A DNA stretch of 6,970 nucleotides from a virus. Lineage: Duplodnaviria; Heunggongvirae; Uroviricota; Caudoviricetes. Location of the stretch: positions 1-6,970 of the IMG/VR virus record IMGVR_UViG_2547132415_000017. One strand, written 5' to 3'. Positions 1 to 6,970 of this stretch are shown here, in pieces. Positions within the stretch are counted from its first letter, which is position 1; the number at the start of each line of letters is the position of its first letter. The notes under the pieces are model-generated. The model was not told where the DNA came from. It worked only from the letters and a program-made list of their open reading frames with translations, and did no database searches. Made by a program: the position numbers and the translations under genes.

Positions 1-1
1 G

Positions 2-2503
2 GTGGCGCGTAACGCGTCCGCGGTGGCACAGAACACGGCAGCCGCGAAGAAGTCAGCCGGCGATGCCAGCACATCAGCCCGTGAGGCGGCAACCCATGCG
101 ACTGATGCTGCAGGCTCAGCACGCGCAGCCAGCACGTCAGCCGGACAGGCCGCGTCGTCGGCTCAGTCAGCGTCTTCCAGCGCAGGAACGGCATCAGCAA
201 AGGCCACTGAAGCATCAAAAAGTGCTGCCGCTGCAGAGTCCTCAAAAAGCGCGGCGGCCACCAGTGCCGGTGCCGCGAAAACGTCTGAAACGAATGCTGC
301 AGCGTCACAACAATCAGCAGCCACTTCTGCATCCACCGCGACCACGAAAGCGTCAGAAGCTGCCACCTCAGCCCGGGATGCGTCGGCTTCAAAAGAGGCG
401 GCAAAATCATCAGAAACGAACGCATCATCAAGCGCCAGCAGCGCAGCTTCCTCGGCAACGGCGGCAGCAAATTCTGCGAAGGCGGCAAAAACGTCCGAGA
501 CGAACGTTAAGTCTTCTGAAACGGCAGCGGGACAGAGTGCCTCAGCTGCGGCAGGCTCAAAAACAGCGGCTGCATCATCTGCCAGTGCCGCGTCAACAAG
601 TGCCGGGCAGGCCTCAGCCAGTGCCACTGCCGCCGGAAAATCGGCAGAAAGCGCTGCATTGTCCGCTTCAACAGCCACAACGAAGGCTGGCGAAGCCGCT
701 GAACAGGCCAGCGCAGCAGCGAGGTCAGCTTCCGCAGCGAAGACATCCGAAACGAACGCGAAAGCGTCGGAAACCAGCGCAGAATCCTCAAAAACGGCTG
801 CCGCATCGTCAGCCAGTTCGGCGTCGTCATCGGCCTCATCGGCGTCTGCTTCAAAAGATGAGGCGACCAGACAAGCGTCAGCAGCGAAGGGCAGCGCCAC
901 GACGGCATCCACGAAGGCAACAGAGGCTGCTGGCAGTGCGACGGCGGCATCTCAGAGCAAAGTTGCTGCTGAATCCGCGGCAACGCGTGCCGAAACAGCG
1001 GCAAAACGGGCAGAGGATATTGCTGATGCCGTATCTCTGGAAGATGCGAGTACGACGAAAAAAGGTGTGGTTCAGCTCAGTAGCGCCACTAACAGCCCGT
1101 CTGAAACGCTGGCTGCGACACCAAAAGCGGTTAAGGCGGTAATGGATGAAACGAACAAGAAAGCGCCCTTAAATAGTCCTGCACTGACCGGAACGCCAAC
1201 AACGCCAACTGCGCCAAAAGGTACTAATAATACTCAGATCGCAAGTACGGCTTATGTGATGGCCGCGATTGCCGCCCTTGTAGACTCGTCGCCTGACGCA
1301 CTGAATACGCTGAACGAGTTAGCGGCGGCGCTGGGCAACGACCCGAATTTTGCGACCACCATGACTAACGCGCTTGCGGGTAAGCAACCGAAAGATGCCA
1401 CCCTGACGGCGCTGGCCGGGCTTGCTACTGCGGCAGACAGGTTTCCGTATTTTACGGGGAATGATGTCGCCAGCCTGGCAACCCTGACAAAAGTCGGGCG
1501 GGATATTCTTGCGAAATCGACCGTTGCTGCCGTTATCGAATACCTCGGTTTACAGGAAACGGTAAATCAGGCTTCTGGCGCATTACAGAAAAACCAGAAC
1601 GGCGCAGATATTCCGGGAAAAGATACCTTCACCAAAAACATTGGTGCCTGCCGCGCATATAGCGCATGGCTGAATATTGGTGGCGATAGTCAGGTCTGGA
1701 CAACTGCGCAATTTATTTCGTGGCTGGAGAGTCAGGGGGCATTTAACCATCCTTACTGGATGTGCAAAGGCTCATGGGCTTATGCAAATAATAAGGTTAT
1801 TACAGATACAGGTTGCGGAAATATTTGTCTTGCAGGTGCTGTGGTGGAAGTTATTGGCACTCGCGGCGCAATGACCATACGCGTTACTACGCCGAGCACG
1901 TCCAGCGGTGGCGGAATTACTAACGCTCAATTCACTTATATTAATCATGGTGATGCTTACGCTCCTGGCTGGCGACGAGACTACAACACGAAAAACCAGC
2001 AGCCTGCATTTGCTTTAGGGCAAACAGGACGCAGGGTCGCAAATGATAAAGCTGTTGGCTGGAACTGGAATAGCGGTGTTTATGATGCAGATATCAGTGG
2101 TGCATCGACATTAATCCTCCACTTCAATATGAATGCGGGGAGTTGCCCTGCTGTACAGTTCCGCGTGAATTACAGGAACGGCGGTATTTTTTATCGTTCA
2201 GCGCGTGATGGTTATGGCTTTGAAGCTAACTGGTCAGAGTTTTACACCACAACACGCAAACCCTCTGCGGGGGATGTTGGTGCATATACGCAGGCAGAAT
2301 GTAACTCAAGGTTTATTACAGGTATTCGCCTTGGCGGTCTGTCATCTGTTCAGACATGGAAAGGCCCCGGCTGGTCTGACAGGTCAGGTTATGTCGTTAC
2401 GGGTTCAGTTAACGGAAACCGTGATGAATTAATTGATACAACTCAGGCAAGGCCAATTCAGTATTGCATTAATGGGACGTGGTATAACGCGGGGAGTATT
2501 TAA
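2..2503 (+). CDS. Phage side tail-fibre protein (Stf-like), 5'-partial; constant part 2..~1545, variable receptor-binding C-terminal cassette ~1546..2503
   Basis: ORF open from the window edge (833 codons). The N-terminal ~330 aa are Ala/Ser/Thr-rich with a recurring AAK(T/S)SETNA motif. A fibre-type segment follows (KKGVVQLSSATNSPSETLAATPKAVKAV...). The C-terminus ...RPIQYCINGTWYNAGSI parallels the C-terminus of the opposite-strand cassette (...FRPIQKYINGTWYNVVQV). The ORF crosses the left crossover site in frame (VIEYLGLQETVN). Stop TAA at 2501-2503. Confidence 0.9.
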   Translation: MARNASAVAQNTAAAKKSAGDASTSAREAATHATDAAGSARAASTSAGQAASSAQSASSSAGTASAKATEASKSAAAAESSKSAAATSAGAAKTSETNAAASQQSAATSASTATTKASEAATSARDASASKEAAKSSETNASSSASSAASSATAAANSAKAAKTSETNVKSSETAAGQSASAAAGSKTAAASSASAASTSAGQASASATAAGKSAESAALSASTATTKAGEAAEQASAAARSASAAKTSETNAKASETSAESSKTAAASSASSASSSASSASASKDEATRQASAAKGSATTASTKATEAAGSATAASQSKVAAESAATRAETAAKRAEDIADAVSLEDASTTKKGVVQLSSATNSPSETLAATPKAVKAVMDETNKKAPLNSPALTGTPTTPTAPKGTNNTQIASTAYVMAAIAALVDSSPDALNTLNELAAALGNDPNFATTMTNALAGKQPKDATLTALAGLATAADRFPYFTGNDVASLATLTKVGRDILAKSTVAAVIEYLGLQETVNQASGALQKNQNGADIPGKDTFTKNIGACRAYSAWLNIGGDSQVWTTAQFISWLESQGAFNHPYWMCKGSWAYANNKVITDTGCGNICLAGAVVEVIGTRGAMTIRVTTPSTSSGGGITNAQFTYINHGDAYAPGWRRDYNTKNQQPAFALGQTGRRVANDKAVGWNWNSGVYDADISGASTLILHFNMNAGSCPAVQFRVNYRNGGIFYRSARDGYGFEANWSEFYTTTRKPSAGDVGAYTQAECNSRFITGIRLGGLSSVQTWKGPGWSDRSGYVVTGSVNGNRDELIDTTQARPIQYCINGTWYNAGSI
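1533..1566. repeat. Left inversion crossover site (gix/pix/hix-like), embedded in frame in the tail-fibre ORF
   Basis: ttatcgaatacctcggtttacaggaaacggtaaa; its reverse complement matches 4578-4611 at 32 of 34 positions. The 26-bp core TTATCGAATACCTCGGTTTACAGGAA resembles serine-invertase crossover sites as I recall them. Central dinucleotide TC here versus GA at the right site. Confidence 0.85.
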
Positions 2504-2505
2504 CG

Positions 2506-3039
2506 ATGATGCACTTAAAAAACATTACTGCTGGCAACCCTAAAACAAAAGAGCAATACCAGCTAACAAAGCAATTTAACATCAAATGGCTTTATTCAGA
2601 TGATGGAAAAAACTGGTATGAGGAACAAAAGAATTTCCAGCTAGACACTTTGAAAATGGTCTATGACCATAACGGCGTTATTATTTGTATTGAAAAGGAT
2701 GTTTCAGCAATTAATCCAGAGGGTGCAAGCGTCGTTGAATTACCTGATATTACAGCAAATCGCCGGGCTGATATTTCGGGGAAATGGATGTTCAAAGATG
2801 GCGTAGTGATAAAGCGAACTTATACCGAGGAAGAGCAGAGGCAACAAGCGGAAAATGAAAAGCAAAGCCTGTTGCAACTTGTCAGGGATAAAACCCAGCT
2901 ATGGGACTCACAGCTACGGCTGGGCATCATTTCCGACGAGAATAAACAAAAATTAACCGAGTGGATGCTCTATGCGCAGAAAGTCGAATCTACAGACACT
3001 TCCGGCCTGCCAGTAACGTTTCCCGAACAACCAGAATGA
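2506..3039 (+). CDS. Tail-fibre assembly protein (Tfa family), cognate to the expressed fibre cassette
   Basis: 177-aa ORF with ATG 2 nt after the fibre stop (TAACGATG) and GGGGAG 9-14 nt upstream. The N-terminal ~110 aa are closely similar to the opposite-strand paralogue ([22 protein letters not shown]...DGKNWYEE...PDITANR...SGKWMF), with divergent C-termini. Stop TGA at 3037-3039. Confidence 0.88.
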   Translation: MMHLKNITAGNPKTKEQYQLTKQFNIKWLYSDDGKNWYEEQKNFQLDTLKMVYDHNGVIICIEKDVSAINPEGASVVELPDITANRRADISGKWMFKDGVVIKRTYTEEEQRQQAENEKQSLLQLVRDKTQLWDSQLRLGIISDENKQKLTEWMLYAQKVESTDTSGLPVTFPEQPE

Positions 3040-3043
3040 GAGA

Positions 3044-3061
3044 AGGCCCGCTATCGGGCCT
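3044..3061. terminator. Bidirectional hairpin between the convergent tail-fibre assembly genes
   Basis: AGGCCCG-ctat-CGGGCCT (7-bp GC-rich stem, 4-nt loop), followed by TTAATTTTT on the plus strand and flanked by T-rich sequence on the minus strand. Sits in the 28-bp gap between the stops of the two Tfa genes. Confidence 0.6.
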
Positions 3062-3067
3062 TAATTT

Positions 3068-3595
3068 TTACTCTGGTTTTTGTGGCCATTCAGGATTTGC
3101 CGTATCCACACGGCTGACCAGAACACTGTAGCGTTCCCATGCTTCCAGTCGTGTGCGTTCCTCGTCTGTTGCCATATTCAGCCTGACAGCGCGTTCCAGC
3201 GGTTGGATGACTGATTCAGCTTCGGAAAGCAATGCGGCCTTTTGTGATTCGGCCTGTTGTTGTTGCTCGTCTGCCGTATAAATCCGTTTAACCACAGCTC
3301 CGTCCCTAAACATCCACTTACCGGAATCATCAGCGCAGCGGTTGGCTGTAATATCTGGAACCTCAACGACGCTATAACCTTCAGGGTTAAGCGTGGAGGC
3401 ATCTTTGGTGATGGCGACAATAATATTATTTGCATCGTAAACAATCTTTATTGTGTCTGGCTGAAAGTTTTTCACTTCCTCATACCAGTTTTTTCCGTCT
3501 TCGGACCATAACCAGATAACATCAAAATTCTTTGTTAGCTGATATTGTTCTTTTGTTTTTGGATTTCCAGACTTAATATTTTTTAAATGCTGCAT
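3068..3595 (-). CDS. Tail-fibre assembly protein (Tfa family), alternative copy for the silent cassette
   Basis: 175-aa ORF on the minus strand, paralogous to 2506..3039. Its ATG lies 3 nt after the stop of the upstream minus-strand fibre cassette, mirroring the plus-strand arrangement. Confidence 0.88.
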
Positions 3596-3598
3596 AAA

Positions 3599-4603
3599 TT
3601 ACACCTGTACGACGTTATACCATGTGCCATTGATGTATTTTTGTATTGGTCTGAATACTGCCGGATCATCGCCATCAACTGCACCGATAATGCCAAGCCC
3701 CGTAATTGCATGACCTGATTTCTCATACATCACGCCTTTTTGCATAGTCTGAACAACACGTGTACCAAGTCGGACATCTCTCACATAACGTGAGTCAAAA
3801 TTACCATAATTGCCGGGAATAACTTGCGCACCGCAAAGCCAGTTGCCATTGTTGTCCATGTACGCCTGACCATCGGTGCCATTGGCTGTCCTTGAGTTAT
3901 TAATCATGTAGATGCCAAATTGCTTATTCCCCAGTCCACCAATCATAAATTTGCGATCAGCGTGGTCCTGACGAAGTAATGCCTGCGCACCATCGGTGGA
4001 TACCGCATTGCGTCCCAAAATAACATTCTGGTCACGCATATGAATCCACATGCCGGTACTACTGTTAATTGCAAAACGGTTTGCAAATATATCCCCTGTA
4101 ACATCAAGACCATGCCCCATGCTTATCCGACCAGTTCTGAGATTAAGCGTAAAGGGGCGTAGTGGCCCTATATCACCATTTTCTCCCTCATTCTCTCGTG
4201 TAGGGATGATATGCAGGCATTCTTCAGAACGACGAAAAATAGCACCAAAAGATGAATTAAATATCCTCAGTGCATTGACTGTCGATATTTTTACTTCACT
4301 GCTGAAAAGGGCTTTAACAAGGACAGACAAAGCATCCCATTTAAGAGTCATCAGGTCTTTTGTTGTGGTGCTCTGGCGGCTTCTCCATTTGAAATATTCA
4401 TTGCCGTTGTCGCCTGTTTCAAACCACATGTATGAATCAGTGTCGCTGTCGGCATTATTTTTAAAACCAATCTTTGCCCAGTCAGTATTTCTAATCCAGG
4501 CAAGGATTGAGTCGTTTTCAAAAGTAAGCCCACCGGACAAGGTATCGCCATTCTTTTGCACGGCGTTCCTGGCCCTGTTTACCGTTTCCTGTAAACCGAG
4601 GTT
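3599..4603 (-). CDS. Silent alternative tail-fibre C-terminal cassette (Sv'-like); no own start or promoter, expressed only after inversion fuses it to the constant fibre region
   Basis: Minus-strand frame is open for about 334 codons from directly after an in-frame TAA (4604-4606) through the right crossover site (N-LGLQETVN-RARNAVQKNGDTLSGG...) to a stop at 3599-3601. The early sequence parallels the plus cassette (QETVNQASGALQKNQNG...). The C-terminus ...FRPIQKYINGTWYNVVQV parallels ...RPIQYCINGTWYNAGSI. The M at 4561 in the ORF track is a GTG and is probably not a real start. Confidence 0.8.
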   Translation of the reverse strand, partial: NLGLQETVNRARNAVQKNGDTLSGGLTFENDSILAWIRNTDWAKIGFKNNADSDTDSYMWFETGDNGNEYFKWRSRQSTTTKDLMTLKWDALSVLVKALFSSEVKISTVNALRIFNSSFGAIFRRSEECLHIIPTRENEGENGDIGPLRPFTLNLRTGRISMGHGLDVTGDIFANRFAINSSTGMWIHMRDQNVILGRNAVSTDGAQALLRQDHADRKFMIGGLGNKQFGIYMINNSRTANGTDGQAYMDNNGNWLCGAQVIPGNYGNFDSRYVRDVRLGTRVVQTMQKGVMYEKSGHAITGLGIIGAVDGDDPAVFRPIQKYINGTWYNVVQV

Positions 4604-4611
4604 TTAGATAA
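4578..4611. repeat. Right inversion crossover site (gix/pix/hix-like)
   Basis: tttaccgtttcctgtaaaccgaggttttagataa; core TTCCTGTAAACCGAGGTTTTAGATAA. Inverted copy of 1533-1566 with 2 mismatches. Lies about 55 bp upstream of the invertase start. Confidence 0.85.
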
Positions 4612-4665
4612 TGGCGGTTTCTGGCCTGCATGGCATGATTTGTGCTTTTGGACGGGAGATTCAGC

Positions 4666-4860
4666 GTGCTGATTGGCTATGTAAGGGTATCAACAAATGA
4701 CCAGAATACAGACCTGCAACGAAACGCTCTTGTTTGTGCAGGATGTGAACAAATATTTGAAGATAAATTAAGCGGAATAAGGACAGGCCGACCTGGATTA
4801 AAACGTGCTTTAAAGCGCCTTCAAAAAGGTGACGCACTGGTTGTCTGGAAACTGGACTGA
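4666..4860 (+). pseudogene. pin: Serine DNA invertase (Pin/Gin/Cin/Hin family), truncated: 64 intact N-terminal codons then TGA; a degenerate 3' remainder continues to about 4995
   Basis: GTG at 4666 preceded by GGGAGA (4654-4659). Product VLIGYVRVSTNDQNTDLQRNALVCAGCEQIFEDKLSGIRTGRPGLKRALKRLQKGDALVVWKLD matches the conserved invertase N-terminus, including the catalytic-serine motif YVRVSTNDQ. Stop TGA at 4858-4860 sits where intact invertases have Arg (WKLD-RLGRS...). The next in-frame codons ([12 protein letters not shown]) still weakly resemble LGRSMKHLISLV, after which no frame resembles an invertase. A full-length gene of about 190 codons would not fit before the convergent gene ending at 5066. 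Confidence 0.8.
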
Positions 4861-5003
4861 CTGGGTCACTGTATGCGGCATCTTGTCGTGCTGGTGGTGG
4901 AAGCCTGGAAGAAGTATCGGGTGTTGCTGAACCGTGTTAATACAACAACTGCACCGGATATTGAATGGCCAACAGGACCCATTATCGAATAGTGCATTAC
5001 GAA

Positions 5004-5036
5004 CTGCAGGATATTATATGGGATAATATTCTGCAG
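5004..5036. terminator. AT-rich palindromic hairpin between the invertase remnant and the 3' end of the GGDEF gene (possible bidirectional terminator)
   Basis: ctgcagGatattat-atggg-ataatattctgcag: 14-bp stem with one mismatch and a 5-nt loop, followed by TTTATTGGGGCTGTATTTT on the plus strand. Confidence 0.4.
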
Positions 5037-5065
5037 TTTATTGGGGCTGTATTTTAAAAAGGTGT

Positions 5066-6397
5066 TTATTTTGAGTGAGTTATCACCTTGTTTTTTCCGG
5101 TTCTTTTGGCTTGATATAACGCTTTATCGGCATTGACTAACATTTCAGATGGACTGAGATTATTCTCTTTTGAAGTAAAGCAACCAATACTGACAGTTAT
5201 TTTCTCAGGTCCATGCGATAATAATTTTTCCGAGCATTGCTCTTCAATGTTTTTTCTGATTCGCTCTGCAATTGATAGCAAGAGCTTTTGAGTATTACCT
5301 TTAATGATAATACCGAACTCCTCACCGCCTAAGCGCCCTAATATATCCTCTTTCCTGATGGATTTTTTTATTATTCTGGTAACCATTACTATGACTTGAT
5401 CACCCATATGATGCCCCCATTTGTCATTGATGCTTTTGAAATTGTCAATATCTAACATTATTACTGAGAAATCATGGTGTTTTGATATATTCTTCAATGA
5501 GTCAATAAAGTATCTTCTATTGTATGTATTCGTTAGTGGATCATGAATTGCCATATGATTAGCATGATTTAATTTCCTGAAAACATAATACATGAGTGTT
5601 GAAATGATATAAATCATTGATATCAATTCAAGAAATTTTGTCATGTACCATGCAGGATGGGATTTATCAATAAAATACAATAAAATTAGATTATTGCATA
5701 CTGACACTATACTAATAAGTATTATACACAACCATATTTTTGAGTAATTACGTATGCTGATGCATGAGCTGATAAGTAATACAAGCCAAAATACTGATAT
5801 TATTTTGGTGTACACGATATTCCACGTCGGCAAATGACGATTCAGCGAGTATTGTATAATATTAAGACTATATTTTATATTGTCACTGCTTAGATTTTTT
5901 GCTACAAACGGAGTAATAAAAAGAATTAATATTGACAAAACAACAATTATTATGTTTCTTTTATCTTCTAAAACACTTTTGTTTTTAACATTGGTGGAAT
6001 AAACAGCCAGAAAGATTATAGATATAAAGCTGAACTGACGGAATAGATAATATATTGCGATATCATTTGATTTCTGATAGATTGTAGATAAATCGTTACC
6101 TAACGGAGATAAAGAAATAATAGCCACTTCTAATAAATAATACGTGTTGCTCAAAAACGCGAATGAAAGAATTAAGAGATAACTTTGTCTCTGATTAGAA
6201 ACATAGTAAAGCAATAGAAAAATAAAAATCATCAGGTTTATGAAAAAAAGCCCAATAATGAAAACACTATAACTTATTTGTGTTGTTTGTGTTATGTATA
6301 TTCCATTATTTGCATGCAGTAACAAAAATATAATAGAGATGCATGAAAATAAAAAGATGAAGATTTTTATTTTTATAGGTACCTGGTTGATAATCAT
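5066..6397 (-). CDS. Membrane-anchored GGDEF-domain diguanylate cyclase: about 8 predicted TM helices (MASE-type sensor region, possibly YcdT/DgcT-like) plus a C-terminal GGDEF domain
   Basis: 443-aa ORF. The N-terminal ~275 aa are strongly hydrophobic, with about 8 stretches of 19-25 residues. The C-terminal domain has canonical GGDEF-domain motifs: DPLTNTYNRRYF, IMLDIDNFKSINDKWGHHMGDQVI, and RLGGEEFGII (GGEEF encoded at 5315-5329). An RxxD motif (RKED) sits 5 residues upstream of GGEEF. Also ADKALYQAKRTGKNKV. ATG at 6397-6395 with AGGTG 7-11 nt upstream. Very AT-rich. Family assignment of the N-terminal domain is from architecture only and is unverified. Confidence 0.88.
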   Translation of the reverse strand: MIINQVPIKIKIFIFLFSCISIIFLLLHANNGIYITQTTQISYSVFIIGLFFINLMIFIFLLLYYVSNQRQSYLLILSFAFLSNTYYLLEVAIISLSPLGNDLSTIYQKSNDIAIYYLFRQFSFISIIFLAVYSTNVKNKSVLEDKRNIIIVVLSILILFITPFVAKNLSSDNIKYSLNIIQYSLNRHLPTWNIVYTKIISVFWLVLLISSCISIRNYSKIWLCIILISIVSVCNNLILLYFIDKSHPAWYMTKFLELISMIYIISTLMYYVFRKLNHANHMAIHDPLTNTYNRRYFIDSLKNISKHHDFSVIMLDIDNFKSINDKWGHHMGDQVIVMVTRIIKKSIRKEDILGRLGGEEFGIIIKGNTQKLLLSIAERIRKNIEEQCSEKLLSHGPEKITVSIGCFTSKENNLSPSEMLVNADKALYQAKRTGKNKVITHSK

Positions 6398-6655
6398 GTA
6401 CGCACCTGAGAATGATATATATATAATATGTATCGCTACAAATAACGATAATTTCTTACTGGTGATAGTATACTATTATTCTGGTTAATCGCTGTCAAAT
6501 TGATGATTTTGGTTAGTATTGCAATAGCGAAGAGTTTGATCCGGTAAGACTGGCTAGGCAAGGCTATACCAAAAAATCAGTGTAGGTTCAGAAAATGATG
6601 CACCATACAATCATCAATAATTTCAAATTGTCCATTGTGCATAAATCATAAAGAA

Positions 6656-6692
6656 AACCGCAGCACGTCGTATGCAAGAACGTGCTGCGGTT
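6656..6692 (-). terminator. Rho-independent-type terminator hairpin oriented for minus-strand transcription
   Basis: Perfect 12-bp stem aaccgcagcacg / cgtgctgcggtt (6656-6667 and 6681-6692) with a 13-nt loop. On the minus strand it is followed by TTTCTTTATGATTTAT; on the plus strand the following sequence is not T-rich. Confidence 0.5.
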
Positions 6693-6878
6693 GGCTGGTG
6701 AACTTTCGATAGTGCGAGTATTGAATGATTTCCAGCTGTTGCCGATTTTACTATGTTTTCAGTAGAACACTTAGACAAAACTGAGGCACACAAATCTTTG
6801 CACTGGATTGCAAGGCTTTGTGCTTCTCTGGAGTGCGACATGTTTGATAACAAAAAATTAGCGCAAGAAGACAAAAAT

Positions 6879-6970
6879 TAGACTGGCCCCCTGAATCTCC
6901 AGACAACCAATATCACTTAAATAAGTGATAGTCTTAATACTAGTTTTTAGACTAGTCATTGGAGAGCAGA
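6879..6970 (+). mobile_element. IS2 insertion sequence, left terminal inverted repeat and leader (partial; continues beyond the window)
   Basis: TAGACTGGCCCCCTGAATCTCCAGACAACCAATATCACTTAAATAAGTGATAGTCTTAATACTAGTTTTTAGACTAGTCATTGGAGA... matches the IS2 left end as I recall it, the region just upstream of the transposase orfA start. Recognised from memory, not by search. Confidence 0.8.

Follow-up and report, generated by a model that had tools for sequence, protein, structure and literature searches.

A Mu-type invertible segment on a lambdoid side tail fibre of Escherichia coli, found in both orientations beside a truncated invertase gene

How does an invertible DNA segment come to lie in both orientations among closely related strains when the invertase gene next to it is dead? 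The question is raised by a stretch of 6,970 nucleotides from a tailed phage (Caudoviricetes), positions 1 to 6,970 of the IMG/VR virus record IMGVR_UViG_2547132415_000017, which we analyzed over its whole length and refer to as the window. It carries a tail fibre gene whose distal end belongs to an invertible segment (1533-4611), followed by the 5' end of a serine invertase gene. The G segment of Mu, the C segment of P1 and the P segment of e14 are the classical invertible fibre segments, the textbook example of how temperate phages hedge between hosts. The locus has the anatomy of such a segment and is homologous to two of them, its invertase gene is dead, and both isomers occur with exact junctions in closely related strains. 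We interpret it as a Mu-type G segment that resides in a lambdoid prophage at attB-lambda, on the gene for its side tail fibre (stf), and is inverted by a serine invertase acting in trans, and give this interpretation a probability of roughly 0.8.

A repeat finder run on the window returned one outstanding pair of inverted repeats, with arms of 38 nt (1529-1566 and 4578-4615) that are 92% complementary. They contain the 34-nt arms reported in an initial annotation of this DNA (1533-1566 and 4578-4611), in which 32 of 34 positions match when counted from the sequences, and a stretch of 25 bp is perfectly identical between the two repeats. Each repeat holds a 26-bp crossover site of the gix type. 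The left site (1533-1558, plus strand) reads TTATCGAATACC TC GGTTTACAGGAA, with the central TC at 1545-1546, and lies in frame within stf; the right site (4586-4611, minus strand) reads TTCCTGTAAACC GA GGTTTTAGATAA, with the central GA at 4598-4599 on the plus strand. The span bracketed by the two sites is ∼3.05 kb. For comparison we used database records with the boundaries annotated there. Both Mu sites at the annotated boundaries of the G segment (AF083977) read TTATCCAAAACC TC GGTTTACAGGAA; the right site of the window agrees with Mu gix at 25 of 26 positions and the left site at 24 of 26, and the inner half-sites and the 2-bp TC core are identical. The initial annotation had proposed to look for similarity of the repeats to serine-invertase crossover sites, and that similarity is present. 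A degenerate pattern of the core matched the window at two places, exactly the left and right sites, and had no match in 200 dinucleotide-preserving shuffles; no such site is expected by chance. The plus-strand frame across the left site (...AAVIEYLGLQETVNQASG...) stays open to 2503 and the minus-strand frame across the right site (...II*NLGLQETVNRARN...) to 3599, and both encode the LGLQETVN junction that had been read from the sequence before. Inversion is predicted to exchange 315 residues for 329.

Beyond the right site lies the remnant of a gin-type serine invertase gene (4666..4860, plus strand), which consists of 64 codons followed by TGA. The encoded stub is 95.3% identical to residues 1-64 of Mu Gin and 72% identical to Cin, and in the alignments its TGA occupies the position of an arginine in both proteins. 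Its match to the Pfam Resolvase profile covers only positions 2-73 of 145, and Pfam detected no DNA-binding domain in it. Past the TGA, recombinase-like codons continue for ∼14 more and then give way to 30-odd codons from the end of a lambdoid tfa gene, the invertase sequence being lost after about codon 79. A serine-recombinase fragment of this size cannot dimerize or bind DNA. By its sequence, the segment's own invertase gene is evidently dead, which leaves the module non-autonomous and without an adjacent functional serine invertase. The cassette had been described as complete, with every part visible in the sequence; in view of the invertase, this is an overstatement. What the stub has kept is the equivalent of the recombinational enhancer, the Fis-binding sis region (4684..4755, plus strand), which is identical to nt 19-90 of Mu gin at 72 of 72 positions and corresponds to the coordinates in cin to which the P1 record assigns the inversion enhancer. 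As in Mu, 67 bp separate the centre of the site from the start codon. Inversion would be expected to depend on Fis and this enhancer.

The tfa sequence fused to the stub is a C-terminal remnant (4894..4992, plus strand) that matches positions 104-130 of the 131 positions of the Caudo_TAP profile and is annotated as partial tfa in RefSeq. The fusion lies at 4861-4992 of the window and at 7642-8671 of the retrieved locus L004. Strain TUM9868 has the identical junction between stub and tfa in a Rac-site prophage, where an intact, distantly related pinR follows. Because the same junction occurs at the Rac site, the module appears to have spread among lambdoid prophages with its invertase already dead, which suggests that the fusion arose in a single illegitimate recombination event and was then passed between lambdoid prophages. 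We considered the neighbouring pinR as the segment's invertase and rejected it, since it is present only in the Rac-site copies, is absent from the window, and is 43% identical to the stub.

We then asked which orientations exist in natural strains and searched 5,426 complete E. coli genomes. As a query for the opposite orientation we used a synthetic inverted right junction of 1,402 nt, made by joining the reverse complement of 1546-2245 to 4599-5300, which takes in the stub and the tfa remnant and reaches into the start of the adjoining cyclase gene. The junction was covered over at least 80% in 26 genomes and at full length with 99.4-100% identity in 22, five of them with 100% identity over all 1,402 nt; the inverted isomer that had been predicted from the window therefore exists, with the exact junction, in 26 complete E. 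coli genomes. The window's own right junction was found in 63 genomes at the same locus, and both orientation classes match the same flank of invertase stub and diguanylate cyclase gene. We retrieved 17 loci, eight inverted and nine oriented as in the window (here called as-is). The eight inverted loci all have the complete interior of 3,027 bp turned round as a single block that ends flush with the sites, and the sequences of the left and right sites were unchanged in all 13 loci examined, in both orientations.

To place these loci relative to each other we built a tree on the right flank, using the 6.6 kb that extend from the stub as far as bioF and contain 267 variable sites among the 17 loci. 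Orientation is scattered over this tree and requires eight changes by Fitch parsimony, and five well-separated flank haplogroups each contain both orientations. Over the 6.6 kb, inverted ETEC6 differs from as-is YJ6 by 2 single-nucleotide polymorphisms (SNPs), inverted 2018-02-2CC from as-is PSS-16 and inverted PSS-13 from as-is VTB97420v by 3 each, inverted BS15R-A from as-is 90-1 by 13, and inverted Z0117EC0098 from as-is C2 by 22. Within the segment, 14 variable positions track the flank haplogroup and not the orientation, which indicates inversion in place rather than import from another copy. The dead invertase is common to all of these loci, and at least five independent flips must therefore postdate its loss. 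From these comparisons, inversion is apparently ongoing or recent, and the combination of a dead local invertase with both orientations among near-identical strains makes it most likely that another enzyme acts in trans.

The segment resembles those of Mu and P1 in more than its layout. Positions 1530-4611 of the window align over their full length with the segments of Mu (87.5% DNA identity), D108 (91.5%), SfMu (89.9%), P88 and PhiR68_1 (about 94%), P7 (92%) and P1 (85%). With 85-94% identity throughout, the segment is evidently a direct orthologue of the Mu G and P1 C segments, and the earlier statement that it has the architecture of Mu G, P1 C and e14 P, although supported, was too modest. 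Homology to Mu starts at 1530-1533, the outer edge of the left site, and the fibre shaft upstream is therefore unrelated to that of Mu. As the expressed fibre end and chaperone are of the S'/U' type, the window is in the state equivalent to G(-).

The organization is that of two alternative fibre C-termini, each with its own chaperone gene, in opposite orientation, with the constant N-terminal part and the promoter outside the segment. The constant part of the lambdoid side tail fibre (Sc; 2..1532, plus strand) belongs to an open reading frame (ORF) that extends over 2..2503 and matches PHROG tail-fibre families; its shaft is repetitive and rich in alanine and serine, and the window begins 335 nt into the gene. 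No Pfam family was found for the 833-aa fibre product of the plus strand, which was identified by PHROGs and a sequence search of PDB. The expressed variable end (1559..2503, plus strand), the receptor-binding part, is of the S' type, with 96.5% identity to the variable part of Mu S' over 314 aa and a match to PDB 8ju3_A (E = 2e-212). It is followed by the expressed U'-type assembly chaperone gene (2506..3039, plus strand; Caudo_TAP, E = 1.7e-35), whose product is 96.6% identical to Mu U'. On the other strand, the silent U-type chaperone gene (3068..3595, minus strand; Caudo_TAP, E = 7e-38) encodes a protein with 93.7% identity to Mu U and 97.1% to P1 U that matches PDB 5yvq_B over its full length. 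The silent S-type fibre end (3599..4585, minus strand) is an open frame from the site to 3599 with a Gp34_trimer domain; it lacks a start codon of its own and requires fusion to Sc. It is 69.9% identical to residues 175-504 of Mu S and matches Mu S in PDB (5yvq_A, E = 3e-145), which bears out the expected homology of the minus-strand cassette to tail fibre C-termini; solved structures thus match both variable ends and the U chaperone. A GC-rich hairpin with a run of T residues (3043..3062, plus strand) between the convergent chaperone genes, recognized by a match in a consensus scan only, could possibly serve as a terminator for whichever side is transcribed. The repeat finder also detected an inverted repeat of 161 nt (75%) between the two tfa genes.

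In natural strains each of the two fused fibres is an intact ORF, of 945 aa in the as-is orientation and 959 aa in the inverted one. The initial annotation had proposed that inversion swaps the last ∼320 residues of the fibre and brings in the matching chaperone; the alternative fibre is borne out by the intact inverted ORF, with 315 residues exchanged for 329 in place of the single figure. We considered whether inverted-state fibres are broken and rejected this, because translation gives an intact 959-aa ORF and the label 'partial' in RefSeq is an effect of annotation. RefSeq splits the inverted fibre into a 'partial' coding sequence and a 'hypothetical protein', or leaves a gap (loci L008, L009 and L011-L013, at about 1768-4647). 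As a consequence, automated annotation wrongly presents one phase state as a pseudogene. Separately from orientation, the shaft itself varies: positions 1-1100 of the window contain many imperfect direct repeats with spacings that are multiples of 21 nt, shaft identity is 92-97% between strains whose flanks exceed 99%, and the fibre has 1003 aa in BS15R-A compared with 959 aa elsewhere.

We propose that a serine invertase of the Gin/Cin/Pin/Hin type would cut both 26-bp gix sites at the central TC/GA and rotate the 3,053 bp between them. In the orientation of the window, the shaft would be fused to the S'-type end with the U'-type chaperone behind it; after inversion, to the S-type end with the U-type chaperone behind it. 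A flip should change the bacterial surface to which the phage binds, and inversion would thereby be expected to alter host range, judging by the identity of the expressed end to Mu S' (96.5%) and of the silent end to Mu S (70%). With the local invertase destroyed and the sequences of the sites and the enhancer intact, the enzyme would have to come in trans, from an infecting phage, a plasmid like P1 or a second prophage. Site-specific catalysis in trans would have precedents: PinQ and PinR, encoded in Qin and Rac, flip the P segment of e14, a different prophage, and PinE reportedly inverts both Mu G and the H segment of Salmonella (PMC12529663). In a survey for such helpers we used chimeric queries and counted further matching places per chromosome as a proxy, covering chromosomes only and regardless of intactness; at least one further Gin-like or PinR-like match was present in 10 of the 12 listed inverted-state chromosomes.

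Several points weigh against inversion in trans by a site-specific enzyme, or against its effect on phage particles. The evidence for switching comes from the comparison of genomes and not from reads within one culture. The additional Gin-like and PinR-like matches are candidate helpers, counted as places whether or not they are intact, and in the inverted strains 74-2 and PSJ-14 no Gin-like or PinR-like DNA was found elsewhere on the chromosome. A near-full-length Gin/Cin/PinE-like gene was detected by blastn in only 1,730 of the 5,426 genomes. The crossover point can be placed only within the 25-bp identical stretch, and the sequence fits site-specific as well as homologous exchange. Finally, one tail gene of the prophage in strain C2 is frameshifted, which may affect the formation of particles.

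The ambiguity of the crossover point makes RecA-dependent homologous recombination between the short inverted repeats, without a site-specific recombinase, worth weighing. The 25 bp of perfect identity would provide a substrate, a helper invertase is not evident in every carrier, and the differences between the outer half-sites stay with their flanks in all isomers, as homologous exchange would also give. However, about 25 bp is the lower limit for efficient RecA-mediated exchange and such events are expected to be very rare, whereas orientation changes are frequent between near-identical strains. Nor would homologous exchange account for near-perfect gix sites and an enhancer at exactly the Mu spacing, and the longer tfa-tfa inverted repeat gave no rearranged product in the 17 loci. 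Given the frequent flips and the exact conservation of Mu-type sites, enhancer and spacing, we regard this explanation as very unlikely. The same absence of other invertase-like DNA from the chromosomes of some carriers would also suit a frozen fossil, in which inversion ceased with the loss of the invertase and the two orientations are old, stable lineages. The local invertase is indeed dead in every locus examined, and T28R and 2018-02-2CC, each sequenced twice, have the same orientation in both records. Against this, the identical truncation junction in both orientations means that at least one flip postdates the truncation, and the five haplogroups with both orientations at 2-22 SNPs per 6.6 kb raise this number to at least five independent flips; a frozen state is highly improbable.

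The opposite orientation could also have been imported if another prophage, such as one at the Rac site, held a second copy of the module and replaced the segment through a double crossover. Donors are available in some genomes, as the module with the same dead invertase junction is present at other prophage sites, including some partial-coverage matches. Yet the 14 internal variable positions follow the local flank haplogroup whatever the orientation: at these positions inverted ETEC6 equals as-is YJ6, BS15R-A equals 90-1, and PSS-13 equals ET76. Many carriers, moreover, hold a single copy of the junction region, and we consider import exceedingly improbable. Inversion in place by an invertase supplied in trans remains the explanation we prefer. 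A tentative extension of it, by analogy and in our judgment unlikely to be correct, is that the orphaned segment is kept because it can be driven from outside, and that the host may exploit the flipped fibre products, for example by blocking the adsorption of other phages, so that their use would go beyond a second host range for the prophage. Any invertase-bearing prophage, P1-like plasmid or superinfecting phage present in the same cell would then determine the state of the segment. Such a block to adsorption was reported in work on PinQ and the e14 P segment.

The segment resides in an E. coli lambdoid prophage at attB-lambda. Matches to the window lie on chromosomes of E. coli, and in strain C2 the order of genes is nohD, terminase, portal, head and tail genes, J, lom, the 945-aa full-length fibre gene and the segment, followed by the short recombinase ORF, the partial tfa, the diguanylate cyclase gene and ybhB-bioA. 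The lambda att core lies 160 bp past the equivalent of the window's end. A fibre gene after J and lom next to a lambdoid attachment site is the arrangement of a lambdoid Stf/Tfa locus, and the position of the window at the lambda attachment site therefore identifies the fibre as a lambdoid Stf, the distal end of which has been replaced by the Mu/P1-type module.

The last gene before the end of the prophage (5066-6397, minus strand) is AT-rich and encodes a 443-aa diguanylate cyclase with MASE4 and GGDEF domains. Its position at attB-lambda and its architecture fit those of DgcX, described in E. coli O104:H4 and enterotoxigenic E. coli (ETEC; PMC4287979), for which it is a candidate. The window closes with the left end of an IS2 element (its last 92 nt, 6879-6970), which is inserted about 160 bp before the lambda att core and has 98.9% identity to the IS2 copy annotated in strain YJ6. 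An IS2 at the position equivalent to 6879 was found in none of the 22 near-full-length relatives among the collection; YJ6 covers 100% of the window, but through merged matches, since its IS2 sits in the invertase stub and not at 6879. Decay of the prophage differs between strains (YSP8-1, Z0117EC0098, M9682-C1 and 90-1; loci L006, L007, L020 and L019, respectively). An IS1 insertion and deletions have taken away the fibre shaft or most of the late genes, and in one strain the expressed fibre end is frameshifted. The segment, the stub and the cyclase gene are kept in the decaying prophages.

Systematic catalogues of invertible fibre segments exist and include prophage fibres with homology to Mu S (PMC9881135; PMC4272514), and in a limited literature search we found no paper on an orphaned G segment on a lambdoid side tail fibre. 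The class of cassette is thus known, and what our analysis adds is its orphaned and apparently still flipping state together with a clean graft from Mu to a lambdoid phage. A Mu/P1-type host-range module seems to have been transferred as a block to lambdoid side tail fibres, the graft starting right at the outer edge of the crossover site. With its invertase gene already dead, it seems to have reached lambdoid prophages at two or more chromosomal sites. The frequent change of orientation in natural E. coli lineages points to cross-talk between mobile elements that share a cell, and the locus offers a natural and widespread system in which to test DNA invertases that act in trans, a question to which the PinQ and PinR work has recently returned. 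It also calls for caution, as differences in orientation between assemblies should not be read as stable strain markers.

With its paired sites, paired fibre ends and chaperones, segment homology and both orientations, the locus has the features of a G-type segment, and its closest likeness is to the G/Gin system of Mu, D108 and SfMu. It shares with them the gene order Sv'-U' facing U-Sv, a segment size of about 3.05 kb, whole-segment DNA identity of 87-92%, and gix sites that agree at 24-25 of 26 positions with a TC core. With Mu it further shares an expressed end and chaperone that are 96-97% identical to S'/U' and the sequence of the 5' end of gin, with the enhancer region at identical spacing. 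It departs from Mu in its shaft, a lambdoid Stf instead of Mu Sc, with homology beginning at the outer edge of the site, and in its invertase gene, of which a dead stub joined to a tfa remnant is left. Its silent S-type end has just 70% identity to Mu S, and it resides in a lambdoid prophage at attB-lambda. The C/Cin system of P1 and P7 has homologous U and U' chaperones and variable ends of which much is homologous (85-92% DNA identity; 97% to P1 U), and the P1 record likewise annotates an enhancer in the 5' end of the invertase gene. In contrast to the window, however, its cix sites are more distant (cixR matches at 21 of 26 positions, cixL at 17 of 26) and carry TT as their core, its C segment spans 4.2 kb with long inverted repeats, and the invertase fragment of the window is only 72% identical to Cin. 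The P segment of e14 with PinE, in E. coli K-12, is alike in that a partly defective lambdoid prophage carries an invertible segment in its tail fibre genes, and in that this segment is flipped in trans by recombinases of other prophages and occurs in both orientations among sequenced genomes (PMC12529663; PMC4272514). It differs in its size of 1.8 kb, its repeats (TTGGTTTGGGAGAAGG), its fibre ends, and its own intact invertase, PinE. In the flagellar Hin/Fin system of Salmonella, the inverted DNA controls a promoter and not a fibre C-terminus, and the local invertase is intact; the likeness is that Fin, a second invertase encoded by the prophage Fels-2, acts in trans on a pair of sites beside another invertase gene (as cited in PMC12529663), as we propose for the helper of the orphaned segment.

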